Below are positions 44,961-61,196 of a stretch of 64,000 nt of DNA, piece by piece. Made by a program: the position numbers and the translations under genes. Below the pieces are notes generated by a model. It did not search any database, was not told the DNA's origin, and saw nothing but the letters and a program-made list of their open reading frames with translations. The stretch covers positions 120,406,001 through 120,470,000 of the forward strand of contig NC_086097.1 in assembly GCF_963921235.1 (NCBI RefSeq). The letters run 5' to 3'. Position 1 is the stretch's first letter, and the number at the start of each line of letters is the position of its first letter. This DNA comes from Mobula hypostoma. Taxonomy: Eukaryota.

Positions 44961-47900
44961 ATCTCATCTTGAATGCTGAGCGACTGAATCTTCTTGACAA
45001 ACTTTTGTAACGCATTGGGAAAGGTTTCACTGCTAATGTAATGGTCTGTCTGTAGCAGCAGTGTTTGGCTTATGACAAGAGATAAAGGGGGCTTTGGAAT
45101 GTGCGCCGTCCAATGAGGGGAGTGATTTTTTCTTTCTTGTGTGTCCAAGAGTAGGTATTCATGGTCTTTTGTTCAGCGGAAGATGGAGAGAGAAGATGCC
45201 AGAATGGAGAGATCGTAGACTGCAGGATGGAGTGGACTTGGAATGGGTTGGGAGTCGACGATGCCCGGGGGAAATTGATGGGGGGGCTAATGGACGGGAA
45301 ACCCTGAGCTTCAACGTGTGCATTGGACTGTTTCATTAAAATGGGTCCTTTTCTTTTTGTTTCTCTTTACTAGCCCTCTAGTCAAATCAAGAACTATAAA
45401 ACTAATTCTTTTAATTGTATATGGTGTACATAATAGGGGAACACATCATGCAGCATCCACAAAAACAAGAGGTTTTGCACTTCTGATCTCACACATTTGG
45501 CGGGGCTGTCTTCTCTAGAGTAATGCCGCCATCTGAACCTGAGGATTACAATTGTTGGGGTATCATTCCGGGATTGATTTTGTTGGATGCTGTGTGATTG
45601 CCCTGAGCATTGAACCAGTGGGTTGTGTGTTTAAATCTGTGCTGGTGTGGATGCTGCTGGGGCGGAGTGATGATGCACATCGATGTGGTTACCGGTAATT
45701 AATGCGTGTGTGTTGAGCAGGTAGGTATCCGTACTCCTGATGAATTGTTAATTTGACTTTTAAGTACTGTTAAAGCTGTAGGCAAAGTTACGATTGTGGG
45801 ACAGAGATTTGATAAAATGGTGTGCACAGACTTTGTTTTAGTTCCATCTGGTGTTGACGTAACGGCAGCGACTGCCTGGTACTATTGGGGCCCCAGAAGA
45901 GGAGGGGATGTGGACTGTCCATACTTTCTGGGAGGAGGAGAGTGTAGGGGAGCGGGCCGAATCACAAGTCAAGTCTCCCGTAGCTGGGGGCGGAGACTTC
46001 CGAGCCAGGGTTCTCTCGTTTCTGCTTAGCGAAGGGAAGGAGTGGTCTGATTTGGAATGTCTATTGAGCCCCCATCCCTCAGTGAAGAATGAGAATTTTG
46101 AGTTAGTATCCACCCTTACCTCTGGTGAATAAATGGAAAAATGCCCAGGTCCAAAGTCTGAGCTATGGTAGGCTCCGCTTAATCTCAGGAACGAAGCCCA
46201 CCCTGAAGGGGAAGAGGAGTATGAGGCGTGGGCGGAGCTTATCTCTCAGTTGTTAGATGAGTGGCAGTGCTCTGATGACATAAAACAACAGAGATTGGTT
46301 GAGAGTTTGAGGGGGCAGGCTGCTGACATTGTGAGAGCCATAAAGTCCCGGTACTCCCTAGCCAAGGCTGCCAATTACATGGGTGCATTGGAAAATGCAT
46401 TTGGCACGACAGGAATCCCAATGGAGCTCATGACGGGGTTTCAGAACATGCATCAGGAGAATGGGGAGAAGCTTTTTGCCTACACCTTTCAGCTAGAGAG
46501 GCAGCTAAATTACTTGCGGCGCAGAGGGGTCATTCAGGTGGCTGAGGTGGATCAGTTAAGGATGGACCAGATACCAAAGGGCGCCCAGTCCCAGGACCTG
46601 ATTGCTTAGGGTCTTCGAATCTCTCATAAGATGCACCCCCCACCCTGCCATTTATTGAGCTGATCTGAGAAGTATGAGAGGAGGAGAATGCGTCGTAAAC
46701 AGAGGAGGCCTCTGTCAGCAGGGTACAGTGCTCGGCAGTGGTCCCTTGCAGTGAAGTGACCACAGATAGCTTGTCCCAGGGTGTGGTAGATGAGATTGTG
46801 GCAGAGTTGAGAACTGAGATGTCCTGGTTGTTATCAGCGGGTGTGACCCCCCTCCCCATATGATGGAGCTGATAGGGAGGTGAATCCTCTAAGGGGTTGG
46901 ACTACACAGAGGACTGCTAGCAGCCGGTGTCACGCGAAAAAGAAGGAGAGCTGCCGGTATTGTCTATTGTAACTGTGGTGAGGAGGGACACTTCAGGCGG
47001 GGCTGTGAATGATGAGAAACCTTTCAGAGAGTGAACCCCTTGGGTACCTAAGCAGACAGAGTTGTTGGGAAAACTTAAAAGAGACCCATTGAGGGGATGG
47101 CCTGGCTTATCGGGGTGAACACATTCCCAGCAATATATCAAGGAACACTCTAAAGCAAAAAACCCTATTCCTGAAGGCTTAGTTGGGCCAAGTTCCAGTG
47201 TATCACTACAGATAGAGGGCATTTATGCCAGAACCATACTTGATACAGGGTCTCAGGTCACTTTGCTGTGCTGTTCATTTTACAACCAGTATTTGACGCA
47301 TTTACCATTAACGCCATTCAGTGCATGAGAGATCTGGAGTCTTAGTGGGGATGATTGTCCTTATGATGGTTATTTGTCAGTGAAGCTGGGGTTTTCGGAG
47401 GCCAGTGTGGGAGTGACTGAGGTTCTTGATAGATTAGCACTAGTTTGTCCCGACCCCGTTGAGAAGGGTGACGTTTCAATTCTTGTGGGGACTAACACTA
47501 CTATTGTGAGGGGTCTCATGGGAGCCTGCAAGGAGAAAGCTGGAGACAGCTTCCTGTGAACATTGTCCGTTCACCTGGTGTTTCGTGCTGCTTTTCAGGA
47601 AGTGCTTGGCCAGATAACGAGTTTAGACGAGGGACCGTGTGGTTCACCCAGTCTAAGCCAATCATGTTACAGCCTGGGGAAGTAGAGAGAGTAACGGGAA
47701 ACCCCAAATTTCTCAGAATGCCCGAGGGCAAGGTCTTCTTGGTGGATGTTCGGGAAGACCACCAAGAGGAGTCGGGAGTGCCTGCTGGGGTACAAGTGAG
47801 TCCCGAACTGCAGAAGCCCTCAGTTGTACAGGTGAACAGAATGGTAGTGCTTGTCAAGCGGGCATGCCCCTGGTGCATCTTTTCCCAGTGACGTCAATAT

Positions 47901-49199
47901 CTAATGTCCCTGTAAGACAACCCAGGGAGAAACTATTGGAAAAAGGGGGAAAGTTGACCACTGAGTCATTCAACTTTGGGTTGGAAGAGGAGGTCGGTAG
48001 GGAAGATGTTGAAGCTGCAATTTTTCATTTCCACTGAGGAGCTTGATGTGGGTTATTCCAAGTGTACTCGTCACACTAATCGGGTGACTGAGAACATCCC
48101 GTTCAGAGAGAGGTCGTGGCGACTGGCCCCTACAGACATGGAAGACGTTCGGCAGCACTTGTGTAAGTTGAAGGAAGCTGGGATTATAGGACTCTGAACA
48201 GGCGTACTGTCCCCAACCAGTATACGGTCCCAAGGATCGAGAAGCGCTGGCCTGTCTGAATGGTGCGAAGTGGTTCAGTGTGCTGCAGTTGACTGGATAT
48301 TATCAGATCCCCATGAGTGAGGCTGGTAAAGAGAAAACGACATTTATATGTCCACTGGGATTCTTCCAGTTAGAAAGGATATCCCAGAGCATATCGGGAG
48401 CTCCTGCAAACTTCCAGCGGATCATGAAGAAAATGGTGGGGGATATGAACTTGCTTGAGGTATTAGTGTATCTGGATGACCTCATAGTGTTTGGGTCCAC
48501 CTTGGAAGAACATGAAGCGAGGCTACTGAAGGTACTGGGCCACCTGAAAGCTGAAGGATTAAAACTTTCCCTTGATAAGTGCCAGTTCTGCAAGACATCT
48601 GTTAGCTATGTTGGGCACATAGTCTCACGAAGTGGAAGTAGTAACTGATCTGTCTAAGATAGAGGCAGTGACCACCTAGCCAAGGCCCCAGACTGTGAGT
48701 GCTTTGCGCTCACTCCTTTAGTTCTCTGGTTTACTATTGGAGGTTCATGAAGGGCAACGTGAAAGTGAGTCACACGTTGAATCAGCTTCTGTGTGGTTAC
48801 CCTCCCTTGGGGAAGAAAGGGAGGAGGACAAAAGGAGAGGAGGGTAAAGAGTATCTTAGTCCTTCGGAACCTTTTGGACCAAGGTGGGATGGGAAATCTG
48901 AAGAGGCCTTTCAGTTGTTGAAGGAGAGGCTGACCCAGGCGCCTGTGCTGGCTCTTGCAGACCCCCGATTGCCATATAGACTCCATACAGATGCCAGCAG
49001 AGAGGCTTCCTATATCAGGACCAGGGCGCTGGGTTGAGACCTGTTGCATTTGTCAGCTGGAGTCTGTCACCCTCTGAGAAAAGCTATCCCACACACAAGT
49101 TGGAATTTCTAGCGTTGAAATGGGCTGTGGTGGATAAGCTGAGTGACTACATCTGTGGTGCCAAGTTTGAGGTGAGGACGGACAACAATCCCCTAACTT

Positions 49200-49675
49200 T
49201 AAAAACGCAAACAACAGGAATTCTGCAGATGCTGGAAATTCAAGCAACACACATCAAAGTTGCTGGTGAACGCAGCAGGCCAGGCAGCATCTCTAGAAAG
49301 AGATACAGTCGACGTTTCAGGCCGAGACCCTTCGTCAGGACTAACTGAAGGAAGAGTTAGTAAGAGATTTGAAAGTGGGAGGGGGAGGGGGAGATCCAAA
49401 ATGATAGGAGAAGACAGGAGGGGGAGGGATGGAGCCAAGAGCTGGACAGGTGATAGGCAAAGGGGATATGAGAGGATCATGGGACAGGAGGCCCAGGGAG
49501 AAAGAAAAGGGGGAGGGGGGAGAAAACCTAGCAGTTGGGCAAGGGGTATAGTCAGAGGGACAGAGGGAGAAAAAGGAGAGAGAGAGAGAAAGATTGTGTG
49601 TATATAAATAAATAACAGATGGGGTACGAGGGGGAGGTGGGGCATTAGCGGAAGTTAGAGAAGTCGATGTTCATG
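49200..49675 (-). mobile_element. Young Penelope solo pLTR inserted in Gypsy RNase H, 10-bp TSD
   Basis: TSD cccctaactt at 49190-49199 and 49676-49685; reading frame DNNPLT|YILTS resumes after it. Confidence 0.93.
49306..49347 (-). ncRNA. Minimal type I hammerhead ribozyme, intact core
   Basis: Minus strand cagttagtc CTGACGA agggtctcggcct GAAA c GTC gactg. Confidence 0.8.
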
Positions 49676-50857
49676 CCCCTAACTTACATTCTGACCTCGG
49701 TGAAATTGGATGCCACAGGCCATCGGTGGTTGGCGGCGTTGTCTGCCTATGATTTCAGCATGAAGTACCGGCCAGGAAGCCGGAACATTGATGCTGATGC
49801 TTTGTCCCGATATGCACGTGAAGGACTGGACAGGGATGATGAGTGGGAAAGCATTCCTGCCCCACGAGTGAAAGCCATGTGTCAGTTTGCCATCACGGTT
49901 TAGGCAGATGGAAAGCAAGGGCAGGATCGAGCGATGGATCAATTTGGAGCTTCCGATGTCTTAGTCACTGCGGAGTACTACGGCTTTCCCTACCAAGGAC
50001 CAGAGGGCGAACACGGTGGCCAAAGGTTATGGGAAAAGTGTTATGGATGTTCTTTAAAAGTAAAGATAAGCTTTTTTTGTTGCATGCACATTGAAACATT
50101 GAAACATACAGAAATGTGGCACTTATGTCAAAACAAATCAACAAGGATTGTGCTAAAGATAGCTCACAAGTGGCCCCACACGTCTGTACCAACATAAAAT
50201 TTCTATAACTTACTAACCCCTAAGCCTAACCATATGTCTTGAGAATGTGGGAGGAAACTGAAGCACCCAGAGGAAACCACGTACAAAAAGTATACTACTT
50301 GAGTATTCTACATTCTTGTTTAATGTCAATGGGTGGATTTTAATATTGTTTCAACAATTATGCCAGCACATCCATCTGAGGTAAAAATGTTAAATAATAT
50401 TCAGAGATGGGTGTTAATACAAATCCCTATCCTTAATTGAAAATGTGATAAGCATTTATGTCACTTGATTTCAAAGGGAATAAATTATAAAAAATATAAA
50501 AATTTTAATTTGAAATAAGACGTCAACAATCATAAAATGTCTAAAAAGTCATGGAGACAAAACTCTGAGGTGCAAGACTTGGTCTTTGCAGCACCCGAAG
50601 TTTGAACATTTCAAATTTCAATGTTCAAAGTAAATTAATTATCAATGTACACATACACTCAGTGACCACTTTATTAAGTATAGTAAGTTGCTCATAAAGT
50701 TGCCTCTGAATGTATGTCACTAAATACTACCCTGAGATTTCTGTTCTTGCAGACTTTCACAGTAGAACAAGAAAATGCAATAGAATCAATGAAAAAACTC
50801 CACTCAAATACTGATGAACAAACAATGTGCAAAAGAAGACAAACAGCAACCACAAAA

Positions 50858-53590: not shown

Positions 53591-54984
53591 TCAGCACATT
53601 TATTATGTACTTCAAAGGCATTATAAATTTTGAGCAGCATGTTCTCTACGCAAAAGTAAAGATGATCAAGTTTTTAAAAACAGGCAGAAAACAAAAGAAT
53701 TCATGGGTTCATAAACAGGGAGTGTCGGCTGATAATAAGCATGAAAAGAGCAGAAATGGCTGGCTACATTGGAAAGAGTGCCATGTTTGGTTGCACAATA
53801 GATAACTGACTCATGTTTACTGAGATAGCTGAACAGTATTTAAAAGCAAATGAAATTGCCAATGAGAAGAGAGTGCCAATTTTGCTGAGTGCATTGGTTT
53901 TAAAGCCATATAGTTTGCATAGAAATTTAACTGCTCCAACCAGACCAGCCAAAATGAGCTTGGCTGAAGTCATGAAAATAATACAGGAACATTTAGAACT
54001 AAAACCATTGCTGATTGCAGAAACACTTTAGGTTTCATAAGCAGAATCAGGAGGTGAAATCTACGTCAGTATATGTTTCTAAATTGAAGAGTCTGTCTAA
54101 GCATTTTCAATTTGGTAATGGTCTTAATGATGCATTAAGAGATCATTTTGTTTGTGGAATCTTACAAGAAAACATTCAAAACTGGCTCCTAAATAAAGGA
54201 CATCTAACATTTAAAAGAGTAGTTGAAATAACTGTATCAATGAAAACCTCATAGAGACACTATTGAGCTGCAGTCAGGAATGAAATTATGTGGGAACAAA
54301 TTTGCAACATCTAAACAGAAATAGGATTGGTGAACAAATTTTTTGTTGCTGCAGGGGCTTACATAAACCAGAAGTATGCAGATTTAAAGGTGAAATTTGC
54401 TGAAAATGCAACAAAATAGGAATAATATGCTGGGCAAACAAAAATTAATGGGCTTCACTGGGAAGAGGAAAAAATAAAAATCAAGTTGCAGCATCAAAAA
54501 GAAAACTAATCCGCATGGTTGTTAAAAAAAATCTTATGACAGTGACACAGGACTGTGTAGCCTTGAGATTTTCATGTGAAAACTAATGATAGAGAATAAA
54601 TATGGCCTACACGAGAAGTGAACAGCAAGATAATTAAAAAGAGATTGGGCACTGGCTCAATGTTTCAGTCATTGTACAAAATGAGTTTGAACTGCACTGC
54701 AAAGATACTGAACCAAAGCCTGCAGATATCCAACTAGGAACTTTTGCTGTAGAAAACAACTCCTGTGGGGATGACAGCGAAGTACAGTAGCCAACAAGCT
54801 ACATTGTGCCATTGTGCTTGTATGTGGTAAAAACAGGAGGGACAGTGTTATGGGGACAAGAGCGGCTGAGACAACTATAACTTGATTGGAGATCCATCCA
54901 CTACTTGTATGCCTCATCCCATGCAATAGAGCCAACTGAAAGCAAATTAAGGAAGGCACGGGACGATGCCACAACTGTCTCTAT

Positions 54985-55860
54985 GCTGAACACCATGTAT
55001 CATTGCCCAACAGGGGATAACATAGTGTTGATTCCAACCTCTGTGCCTCTGGTTGGAAAGTATATTGGACCAAGGAAGGACCATGTTTCTCAGTGGAATC
55101 ATGAATGAGACATAAGTAGTAGCCCAACTTAAACAGTTTTTATAGGTGACATACCTGAGAAAGCTTCTGATATGTTAGCCAGACAGTTACTTCCAAAATA
55201 TGGCTTGGTTTTAAGTTGGAACAGAGTTCAAGGAGTTTCAGGGAGGTTGCAAGCATTTGGCCTTTGTGAGCATAAAGGACCAGAACCGACTCTGCATATA
55301 TTAAGGTCGTTGCATGAACTTCAAGTGAGAGATAAAAAGCTGCTTGTAAAAGTAGATGCAAAGACCAAAAGCAAGCTAGATGAATGGAATTCCAAAAAAA
55401 GCAGTCAATGGAGATACAAAGACAAAGGATTTATCAGATTGATGTTGTCGATGAAGAAAGCAAGATGAATGATCAGATTGTAAAGGGAGCAATAGATGGA
55501 TTAATAAGAGAATACTCCAGTGATCTAAATGGATCTTCCCAAGGCTAAGATGCACATCCAGAAAAGAAGGTAAAAGAAAAGAAAGAGAACTATGAAATAA
55601 ATGCTATGGAAATGGGAGAGAATAAGCACTACCTAATTTCTCGAAAAATTAGCATATTCAGAAATACAAGTAACTAGAAGTAAAAGGAAGGTGAGAAAAA
55701 GGAAGGTGAGAAAAAGAAAGGTGGAAACAAGAGAAGAGAAATGAGAAAGAAGAAGAAAAGGATCAAGTGTGGGATAAAGAGAGGGAAAGAAGCTGGGACC
55801 AGTAGGGAACCAAGGATTGAAATAGATCCAGAGAGAAAAGCTGAGCAAAGGAAAAGAAAG
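54985..55860 (+). pseudogene. RBM25: Processed (intronless) partial RBM25 pseudogene: RRM + start of RE/RD-rich region
   Basis: GKYIGPRKDH; TVFIGDIPEKASDMLARQLLPKYGLVLSWNRVQGVSGRLQAFGLCEHKGPEPTL..KKLLVKVDAKTKSKLDEW; DQIVKGAIDGLIREYSSDLN; INAMEM..LISRKISIFRNT; NRSREKS; contains stops and frameshifts. Confidence 0.93.
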
Positions 55861-56673
55861 GTGTTCAGAGCTTTCAGAACTACTTCCTGCAGTTCCAGAT
55901 TCAACTCCCACAACCATCCTGTAGGAGGCCCCAGATCCTGAGATTATTTCACAGCCACACGTCTCACTTGCCAAGCAGAGTGATCTCCCTTGTCAGGAAA
56001 AACATTATCCCACAAGAATAAGAAAGCCTCCACAGCGATTAAATCTTTAGACCTGAATGGGACAGTATAAAATTTACTATGCTGTGAATGTCTATATATA
56101 GTAGTCATATTATAGTAGTTATATTATATAGTACACTGCATTTGTCAACGTGGAGTGGGAAGCGAGTTTTTAAATCTGGCGAGAGCAAAGGATGTTGGGA
56201 ATGGGGAGGGTGGAGGGCTGCAGGAGGGGTGTGGAACAGGTGCCAGAGGAAGAGTGCCAGGTGTAAGGGGGGTGGTACAGGAGCCAGCCCTGAGACACCA
56301 GGCAAAGTCATTTGATTCCAAACAATTGGTTTATTGGTTACAGAATGTCTGCCTGGTGCTTCCAGCTCCCTCCCCTCTCCCTTCCCCTTTTCCCAACCAT
56401 GATTGCCTTCCCTCTGCCTCCTTCTCACTTTCAGTCCACAATAGAGTCCCATATCAGAACCAGCTCTATCATCACTCACATACGTACATCATGAAATTTG
56501 TTTTGCTTTGTGGCTGCAGTAAAGTATAATATATAAAATTACTACAGTACTGTACTATGCAAAAGTCTTAGGCACCTTAGCTATATACAGTATATGTGCC
56601 TATGACATTTGCACAATTCTATATATATATACATTCTATATTGTGTTGAAGTTTATAGCTAAGCAGAGAGGAG

Positions 56674-56910
56674 TGTTGTGTATTTAATATTTCAGTAATA
56701 TTGGAGTAATATTCAAAATATATTGTTTAAATAAGCATCTTTATTTGTTTACATAATTCATATGGGTAATATGGAAAAAATGTGTGGATTTCATACATCA
56801 TGATGCAACCATGTGACAAGTGCATTCTTTGCTTAAAAGTAAGCACAAAGTCAGACACACGTGTTTTCCCCTCAATTAGTCTTTATGCTTTGGAGTTACA
56901 AAACATAACA
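56674..56910 (+). repeat. 3' LTR of the Gypsy element
   Basis: Follows polypurine tract; TGTTG...TAACA termini. Confidence 0.7.
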
Positions 56911-58039
56911 AGTTGCACATTGCATATTTTTTAAAAAGGCTTGGAATTCAAATCGAATGATTTTATATCCAGAGGCTGCAATTTAAACTCTGAAATCCGG
57001 GTCAGTTGAAATGTCTTCTTCTGCTTGCAGTCTACCAGTGGATAAAGTGATGAAAGAGCTTGATCTGTCAGAGTTAGCAACAGTCTGAATGCTCAAATAA
57101 ACTGCAGACAGACTGCTTTTAACAGATTTCTTCTCTAATAGACTTGGAAGAGCTGGTGGATAACAAGTATAGTTAAAATAAACATAATACATAAGATGCT
57201 GGAGGAACTCGGCAAGTCAGGCACCATCTGTGGAGAGCAGTAAAGTCAATATTTTGGATCAACACCCGTAATTACAATTGAGACCCTTCATTGCATTGAG
57301 ACCTTTCATCAATAATAACACTGTCGTGGTTCTACCTATTGACAATTCTTTGGAGAGATGTTTGCCAAATGCCTCCTAATATAGTAAAGCCTCCTGTTCC
57401 ATTCCTTCTCATTTACTCGTGGATACATCAGGTTAGCCATAGCACTCTGTTGAAAAGCTATTAATTTCTGTAAGCACACCCCCTGCTCACAGCCTTTGCT
57501 GTCTATTTGTTTCCTTCTGCTTGTCCTCCCTTTCTTTGCAGGTATAATATTACTAACAGGATCCCACAGTCCACTGCTTGAAGCCTCTTAAGAGTTCGTG
57601 TTCACCTGCAACTGAAACCACGTTGTTATTCCAAAAGTATTATTTCATCTGATGAAAATCATTCTAAAACTTTCTAGTTTCAGGCAAATTCCAACAGATG
57701 ATTCTTAGATATTGATAGACATTACCATTGTACATATAAACGTAGGACATAGTTCAATAAACAAACTCTATTTGTTCATTCATGGAATTGAACAGACAGG
57801 AAACTGTAGGGTCTCTATGTTTCAAAGGATTCAATGTATAATTATTATCAAAATATGCATGCAGTATAGAACCCTGAGATTCATCTTCTTCACAGACAGC
57901 TACAAAACTACTTGCACTAGCCACAGATAAAACAAGTATTGTGTGAATGCTCACATACCTTTGTTAACATGAAGCTGCACAGGCCAACAATGTTGGTATC
58001 TCACTCATTTGTATTTAATAGAAAAGATTTTATAAAAGA

Positions 58040-60279: not shown

Positions 60280-60565
60280 GGCCTCCTGTCCCATGATCCT
60301 CTCGTATCCCCTTTTGCCTATCACCTGTCCAGCTCTCGGCTCTATCCCTCCCCCTCCTGTCTTCTCCTATCATTTTGCATCTCCCCCTCCCCCTCCAGCT
60401 TTCAAATCCCTTACTCACTCTTCCTTCAGTTAGTCCTGACGAAGGGTCTCGGCCTGAAACGTCGACTGCGCCTCTTCCTATAGATGCTGCTTGGCCTGCT
60501 GCGTTCACCAGCAACTTTGATGTGTGTTGCTTGAATTTCCAGCATCTGCAGAATTCCTGTTGTTG
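60280..60565 (+). mobile_element. Young Penelope pLTR fragment
   Basis: Nearly identical to the reverse complement of 49210-49492. Confidence 0.9.
60427..60468 (+). ncRNA. Minimal type I hammerhead ribozyme, intact core (predicted cleavage after GUC at 60463)
   Basis: cagttagtc CTGACGA agggtctcggcct GAAA c GTC gactg; stem I AGTC/GACT, palindromic ACGT stem III. Confidence 0.8.
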
Positions 60566-61196
60566 TCATTTTCAAGATTTGCTCACTCTTGGAGACTGGT
60601 GGAGGAAAATTCATTTCTTGTTCAATATATTCCTAGAGCCATTGGTGACATACCAAACCTTTTCAAACTTCTAAAGTTGCAACACTTCTCCTATTGAGTG
60701 GTGTCACAACAGCAACCTTGCACTCACTGTCAGTAACACCAACAAATTGATTGTGGACTTCAGGAAGTGGAAGTTGAGAGAACACACACCAAGTGCTCAT
60801 TCAGGGATCAGCAGTGGAAAGGGTGAATAGTTTCAGATTCCTGGGGGGGTCAACATCTCTGAAGATCTATCCAGGGCCCAACATACTGATGGAATTACAA
60901 AGAAGGTATATCAGTGGCTATATCTCATTCGGATATAGCTATAGAGATTTGGTATGTCTCCACAGACGCTAGCAAACTTCTACAGATGTACCATGGAGAG
61001 CATTCTAACTGGTTTCATCTCCGCGTGGTAGAGAAGGGCCACTGCACAGGATTGATAAAAGCTGTAGAGGGCTTCAGACTCAGTTAGCTCCATCATGGAC
61101 ATTAGCCTCCTCTGCACTGAGGGCATCTTCAAAAGGAGATGCTTCAAAAATGGGGCATCCATCATTAAGGGCCCCCACAACCCAGGATGTGGTCTC

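Follow-up and report, generated by a model that had tools for sequence, protein, structure and literature searches.

How a piece of RBM25 coding sequence came to lie between the gag side and the 3′ tail of an LTR retrotransposon, and whether the resulting chimera has multiplied, are the questions raised by a locus in a window of 64,000 nucleotides (the whole stretch of DNA that was analysed). The original prediction proposed double template switching onto a spliced host mRNA, as well as a possible amplification of the product as a non-autonomous family. Copies were surveyed in contigs of four public runs (X1, X6, X9, and X21) matching at ≥80%. X1, X6, and X9 represent organisms A, B, and C, respectively, and X1 is possibly the source sample and, hence, not independent.

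The element and its boundaries

Sequence, translation, and alignments give the order broken gag/protease region, RBM25 piece, pol-like tail, polypurine tract, and LTR, with an element length of about 2.7 kb once the insert at 56098–56631 is subtracted:

53660–53755 (+): 5′ leader remnant, its start uncertain between 53660 and 53744; the 5′ LTR and the primer-binding site are missing in the window copy
53756–54967 (+): broken gag, protease region, and linker, with several stops and frameshifts, recognized by translation and gag look-alikes
54968–55859 (+): RBM25 fragment, intron-free and on the same strand, both ends cut inside the coding sequence
54977–55024 (+): optional 16-codon RBM25 segment, from protein alignment
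55133–55345 (+): decayed RBM25 RRM domain (Pfam RRM_1, E 0.0037, under the cut-off)
55852–56050 (+): element-derived 3′ coding tail of 63 codons, likely the pol C-terminus, with its stop at 56048–56050
56098–56631 (no strand assigned): very high-copy repeats inserted later into a TA-rich site of the 3′ UTR; not family sequence
56662–56673 (+): polypurine tract, read from the sequence, immediately 5′ of the LTR
56674–56910 (+): 3′ LTR of 237 bp, TG...CA, with a short terminal inverted repeat

The polypurine tract and the 3′ LTR are located downstream of the RBM25 piece, where they had been predicted. The 5′ edge of the LTR is marked by the mixed loose ends found before 56674 in about 500 contigs per DNA run (527, 475, and 538 in X1, X6, and X9), whose flanks are unlike one another (agreement 0.34), and beyond 56916 contig depth drops to single copy. 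LTR variants without 120–127 nt (within 56761–56889) occur in all four runs, which suggests LTR subfamilies. At the other end of the element, no 5′ LTR was found in the 64-kb window, where self-BLAST returned no second LTR and local alignment scores did not exceed those of shuffles; in the contig comparison, contigs sharing the unique flank cease matching at 53659 (X9), 53711 (X6), and 53772 (X1). The ortholog in organism C matches only as far as 53659, its remaining 57 letters being unlike, and that in organism B matches to 53711, so one might speculate that the 5′ LTR was lost only in the A/B line.

In three-frame translation, the gag-like frame opens at the ATG at 53756 and is interrupted by stops and frameshifts. 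Downstream of it lie what we take to be a remnant of a Cys/His-rich knuckle and a protease-like stretch, and the gag-side region also contains an 8-bp tandem duplication at 54802–54817. Two stop-free pieces, 53810–54028 and 54015–54251, are similar to gag clusters of retrotransposons in the Atlas, a likeness that serves as a lead only: the Retrotrans_gag set accounts for 25 of 30 matches at 0.92–0.94, and the other look-alikes are DUF7041, DUF1759, and a weak Ty3_capsid. Pfam gave no match for any of five element pieces read through with X, and the single-sequence structure model of gag is poor (pLDDT 49). The “Gypsy” label and the reading of the tail as a pol C-terminus, neither of which has a database match, are plausible. 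Searches for an autonomous relative through the gag ORF (0 of 89 candidates) and for a chimeric protein through the junction ORF (0 of 7) were negative, no relatives of the element were found among viral contigs or prokaryote genomes, and six window ORFs had no identical entry in the exact-match protein collection. Several apparent hits were rejected, namely two proteins matched in the 50%-cluster library (repetitive and apparently spurious), a single bacterial locus from a metagenome scan (a false positive), and a PDB match at E 0.36 (chance); Rfam gave only two matches in the window, both sub-threshold. The distance from the gag start to the 5′ junction corresponds to 404 codons and the coding sequence after the 3′ junction to 63, too short for RT, RNase H, and integrase, from which we infer that the pol core is missing.

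The RBM25 fragment and its junctions

A search with the RRM frame retrieved 26 of 85 candidates at E ≤ 1e-3 with 73–78% identity, the 21 of them named by their source being called RBM25, RRM/PWI-domain, hypothetical, or unnamed proteins, and the best match was an RBM25-like protein of Heptranchias, indicative of a cartilaginous fish. With the shark-type proteins P0028 and P0027, tblastn reached E 2e-75 and 3e-71, respectively, and the piece matches shark RBM25 at about 70%. P0028, a cluster mate of the Heptranchias protein, aligns from 54968, and a teleost full-length RBM25 (P0022) carries the alignment on to 55859, the final segment, of low complexity, aligning at E 3e-5. The piece is collinear with the proteins without a gap, 417 nt corresponding to 139 aa and 228 nt to 76 aa.

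This piece had been described as a same-strand, intronless stretch of about 875 bp that follows gag/protease-region sequence from about 54978. Strand, lack of introns, and order hold, while the length becomes 888–892 nt, with an end at 55855–55859, and the boundary moves upstream to 54968 because the codons A-T-T, formerly given to pol, match shark RBM25 (residues 12–14 of P0028). The predicted truncation at both ends is borne out, both cuts falling inside the coding sequence, and the captured fragment lacks about 450 RBM25 codons as well as the 3′ UTR. Moreover, an ORF at 54881–55105 crosses the 5′ junction without a stop, and the upstream pol-side frame is in frame with RBM25 in the window copy. 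Inside the piece, a 15-nt unit is repeated 3.1 times at 55682–55727, a region where 15 gap letters appear in the ortholog from organism B, possibly one unit fewer.

At the protein level, the piece would span three exon joins, as judged indirectly from isoform differences and apparent intron read-through in relatives, so origin from a single exon, which would have contradicted the prediction, did not hold. At the point matching 55025, Heptranchias isoform X1 has four extra residues compared with isoform X2, and the window follows isoform X2 without a gap. Past the KKEKKEE motif, both Heptranchias models depart from RBM25 homology in a manner resembling intron read-through, and the window goes on (about 55588); in turn, P0028 and three teleost-type contig proteins depart from homology past RDTHK, where the window again goes on (about 55670). 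The 16-codon segment at 54977–55024 is present in all three shark-cluster proteins of the alignment and absent from all five teleost-type proteins. Since the captured RBM25 holds this segment, one particular isoform was captured, and the family preserves an ancient RBM25 splice isoform.

Neither a poly(A) tail nor a target-site duplication (TSD) accompanies the RBM25 piece, in agreement with what had been claimed: the longest A-run in 55400–55900 is 5 nt, the longest word common to both flanks is 6 nt and equalled by 213 of 500 shuffles, and no TSD candidate was found upstream. For the element copy itself no TSD can be read in the window, because the 5′ LTR is missing. The features of a LINE-made processed pseudogene, i.e., a 3′ poly(A), TSDs, and an intact mRNA 3′ end, are therefore not found in a fragment that ends mid-CDS without tail or TSD. 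It is conceivable that a LINE-made RBM25 retrocopy was inserted into an LTR element, that deletions removed its 3′ part, its tail, and the central pol, and that non-autonomous amplification followed, since cartilaginous fishes are rich in retrocopies, whose counts track non-LTR content in a 244-genome preprint (bioRxiv 10.64898/2026.06.26.734816), microhomology at the junctions is only partly apparent, and the age of the founder leaves time for deletions. However, besides the missing poly(A) and TSD, such a history requires at least one extra deletion ending exactly on the RBM25/element border, and the same-strand orientation and the presumably replaced core fit the one-step model described by Tan et al. 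2016 (PMC5131818) instead, which makes this origin very unlikely.

The 3′ junction was predicted to lie in a purine run, and this is where it was found. Tail-matching contigs bear other sequence upstream of the tail; in three plus-strand tail contigs, 106, 329, and 562 upstream letters lie outside the matched piece, and these letters likely come from elements keeping their own sequence there. Seven of the eight listed non-orthologous tail contigs begin their match at 55852–55862. As RBM25 homology extends to 55859 and tail contigs match from 55852, the 8 nt of the purine run 55852–55859 are claimed by both partners, an overlap that would fit microhomology and that, being low-complexity purine, could also be due to chance. 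At the 5′ junction, where microhomology is presumed, the comparison with host RBM25 shows a match of three codons (54968–54976).

An exchange at the DNA level would likewise leave microhomology and neither poly(A) nor TSD. By this route, recombination or double-strand-break repair would have introduced an RBM25 cDNA, or a processed pseudogene already present, into an element that was integrated by then and later amplified, and a contig joint from 55556 to 55874 in X6 does represent a secondary rearrangement in the family. Nevertheless, this route presupposes either free cDNA or an older pseudogene derived from the same isoform, neither of which was seen, and the documented route in Tan et al. 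is RNA template switching (PMC5131818), so patching at the DNA level appears highly improbable. The X6 contig in question (organism B, depth 80.7) carries 18 letters between the two joined positions and is devoid of about 300 nt of RBM25, and an 8-nt purine word occurs twice near the joint, at 55561 and 55851; the joint suggests shorter deletion forms in the family.

Copy number, age, and decay

A different-family origin of the two flanks, which would have spoken against the chimera, did not hold, given the joints between LTR and leader as well as those between tail and polypurine tract across the insert. The LTR end (56908) is joined to the gag leader (53744) in 16 contigs in total (6 in X1, 7 in X6, and 3 in X9), which places the 5′ and 3′ parts in the same family and indicates that this LTR serves as the 5′ LTR elsewhere; the copies with these joints may or may not carry RBM25.

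The ratio of mean RBM25 depth to unique-flank depth in three bins (55076–55627) is 766 in X1, 924 in X6, and 684 in X9, a mean that leaves out the low-complexity bin 55628–55811 (depth 279, 976, and 224, respectively). The same ratio for gag is 1272, 844, and 1033, and the RBM25/gag depth ratio is 0.60, 1.09, and 0.66, and the bin with the 5′ junction shows no dip in depth (X1, 24,051). Summed contig depth is a rough proxy that is inflated by short overlapping contigs and does not equal copy number, and single listed places give 13–513 times single copy; thus, “hundreds” of copies is safer than “a thousand”. An RBM25 depth of 0.6–1.1 times that of gag and hundreds of times single copy implies that the chimera itself was amplified. 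The predicted amplification as a non-autonomous family is therefore supported by read depth in three organisms, and a family of hundreds of chimeric copies is likely. The arrangement typical of non-autonomous LTR families, that is, many dispersed copies without pol enzymes that keep the LTR and the polypurine tract, is found here with about 500 LTR 5′ edges per run. The depth dip at 55628–55811 (279 versus about 12,000 in X1) had given rise to the idea that the window copy is a rare long form, which was dropped, as dips in depth are uninformative as such, the stretch is low-complexity, and contigs covering RBM25 sequence at 55822 still number 40, 35, and 44.

Depth is uneven, and long junction-spanning contigs are few among the matches listed, which comprise only the longest ones out of about 219,000 pieces. 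Both observations would fit a chimera that occurs once or was produced by the assembly, with unrelated RBM25 pseudogenes as the source of the RBM25 depth. Nevertheless, X21 record 10, a diverged paralogous contig (47 differences over 251 letters), runs across the 5′ junction, and X6 record 19, the ortholog from organism B, runs across the 3′ junction, which speaks against an assembly artefact; moreover, there is no fall in depth at the 5′ junction, and the depth of RBM25 stays close to that of gag in the three organisms. We therefore consider a one-off or artefact extremely improbable. X21 is no more than a presumed RNA run, and its junction contig is not counted as proof of transcription.

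In organism C, one contig reaches from the LTR into the unique flank (56683–57233) and, thus, the insertion is older than the split corresponding to a flank divergence of about 10.6% (2.2% for organism B). Decay is evident: the CpG observed/expected ratio is 0.13–0.21 throughout, and changes in the RRM affect 15 of the 72 columns that do not vary among 26 RBM25 proteins and 6 of the 17 that do (Fisher p 0.22), a neutral-looking pattern with no significant sparing of invariant columns. The intact ORF under purifying selection that characterizes a functional captured gene is not found in the window copy, which carries stops and frameshifts. In the rows listed from the contig survey, a one-base shorter sequence at 55021–55023 makes up about 43–52% of depth and the host-like state at the frameshift near 55440 only about 6–16% per listed place; both count weakly against a selected fusion protein, gaps near contig ends being undercounted. 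Joints from 56097/56098 to 56632 in all four runs show that other copies skip 56098–56631, and this stretch is therefore a later insert of 534 bp that splits the 3′ UTR, with a depth of up to 230,000 in X1 and a 10-nt direct repeat at its ends. Composite in structure, the insert consists of very high-copy repeats and includes a small hairpin at 56558–56613, with 18-nt arms that are 89% alike.

Proposed origin and known captures

Very probably, the chimera arose when reverse transcriptase switched templates twice, to and from an RBM25 mRNA packaged together with the element RNA, and the product then spread in trans. The original reading is supported, and flanks of different families, a poly(A) tail or TSD at the RBM25 piece, and a single-exon origin, the three findings set against it beforehand, did not appear. 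During minus-strand synthesis, the enzyme would have left the element at the purine run 55852–55859 and moved to the co-packaged mRNA, an RBM25 isoform with the optional segment, of which about 890 nt were copied. A return to the element near 54968–54977 would have dropped the core with RT, RNase H, and integrase. With LTRs, leader, and polypurine tract retained, the product would have stayed packageable, and it would have spread by means of enzymes borrowed from intact relatives. The window copy would have inserted before organisms A and C split, followed by loss of its 5′ LTR, arrival of the 534-bp insert, and decay.

In this process, the RBM25 piece was most likely a passenger. An active role, which seems unlikely, would imply that an in-frame Gag-protease-RRM fusion of the founder, or an RNA rich in host exonic signals, aided escape from silencing or packaging and drove the amplification, and that the copies might today be a source of small RNAs directed at the essential RBM25 message. 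If true, this would be among the largest host-gene amplifications in a vertebrate. The likely hundreds of copies provide replicates for the question of whether the cargo aids the spread of the element.

LTR-mediated retrocopies of animals, as described by Tan et al. 2016 (Genome Res; PMC5131818), derive from partial mRNAs cut at both ends, with more loss at the 3′ end, and replace part of the internal ORF. According to the same account, they have neither poly(A) nor TSD, some are non-autonomous, and some older ones are without the LTR part on one side. The RBM25 element resembles them in its mRNA-derived, spliced insert, its flanks from the same family, and the lack of poly(A) and TSD. However, microsimilarity was measured by Tan et al. 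(PMC5131818), whereas it is only partly apparent in the RBM25 element (the 3′ purine overlap), which likely exists in hundreds of copies in three related vertebrates.

Crocodilian endogenous retroviruses have also captured host mRNAs, namely those of KIT-ligand in CrocERV29 and nectin3 in CrocERV31 (PMC4299795), and are likewise vertebrate LTR-type elements in multiple copies shared between species. Unlike the RBM25 element, they are described as retroviruses that number nine and six copies, retain pol, and have near-complete ORFs on which purifying selection acts (PMC4299795). In contrast, the pol core of the RBM25 element appears to be gone, its host fragment is partial, the window copy is decayed, and its copy number is far higher. 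Host gene segments inside an LTR element, as with RBM25, are also described for Bs1 of maize and human HERV-K/FAM8A1 (PMC13317346, PMC5131818). Bs1 comprises pieces of three genes and is now a transcribed chimeric gene, and FAM8A1 is described as an untranscribed pseudogene (PMC13317346, PMC5131818).

The mechanism of capture is known, and its scale here is unusual: the published animal cases compared have one to about ten copies, and the RBM25 family likely hundreds. A single capture event can thus spread part of a host gene massively through a vertebrate genome with no need for LINE activity, here in at least three related species. No publication on an LTR family carrying RBM25 was found in a search mainly of the open literature, with Repbase and Dfam outside its scope and the preprint covered by its main text. 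These observations are relevant for retrocopy censuses, where amplified LTR chimeras may be counted among retrocopies. The top retrocopy parents of cartilaginous fishes in the preprint are MIPOL1, SUDS3, SDF2L1, SLU7, and ZNF276, and its main text does not mention RBM25 (bioRxiv 10.64898/2026.06.26.734816); some of the retrocopies of these five genes may be amplified LTR chimeras.

Other repeats are present in the window. A second, different LTR-type element at 45902–49900 (+) has a PNMA-like gag (Pfam E 1.6e-21) and a broken RT/RNase H, and self-BLAST gave no DNA match between it and the RBM25 element. Furthermore, a dispersed repeat occurs as two 267-nt copies, at 49199–49465 and 60309–60575, which lie in opposite orientation and are 93% alike.
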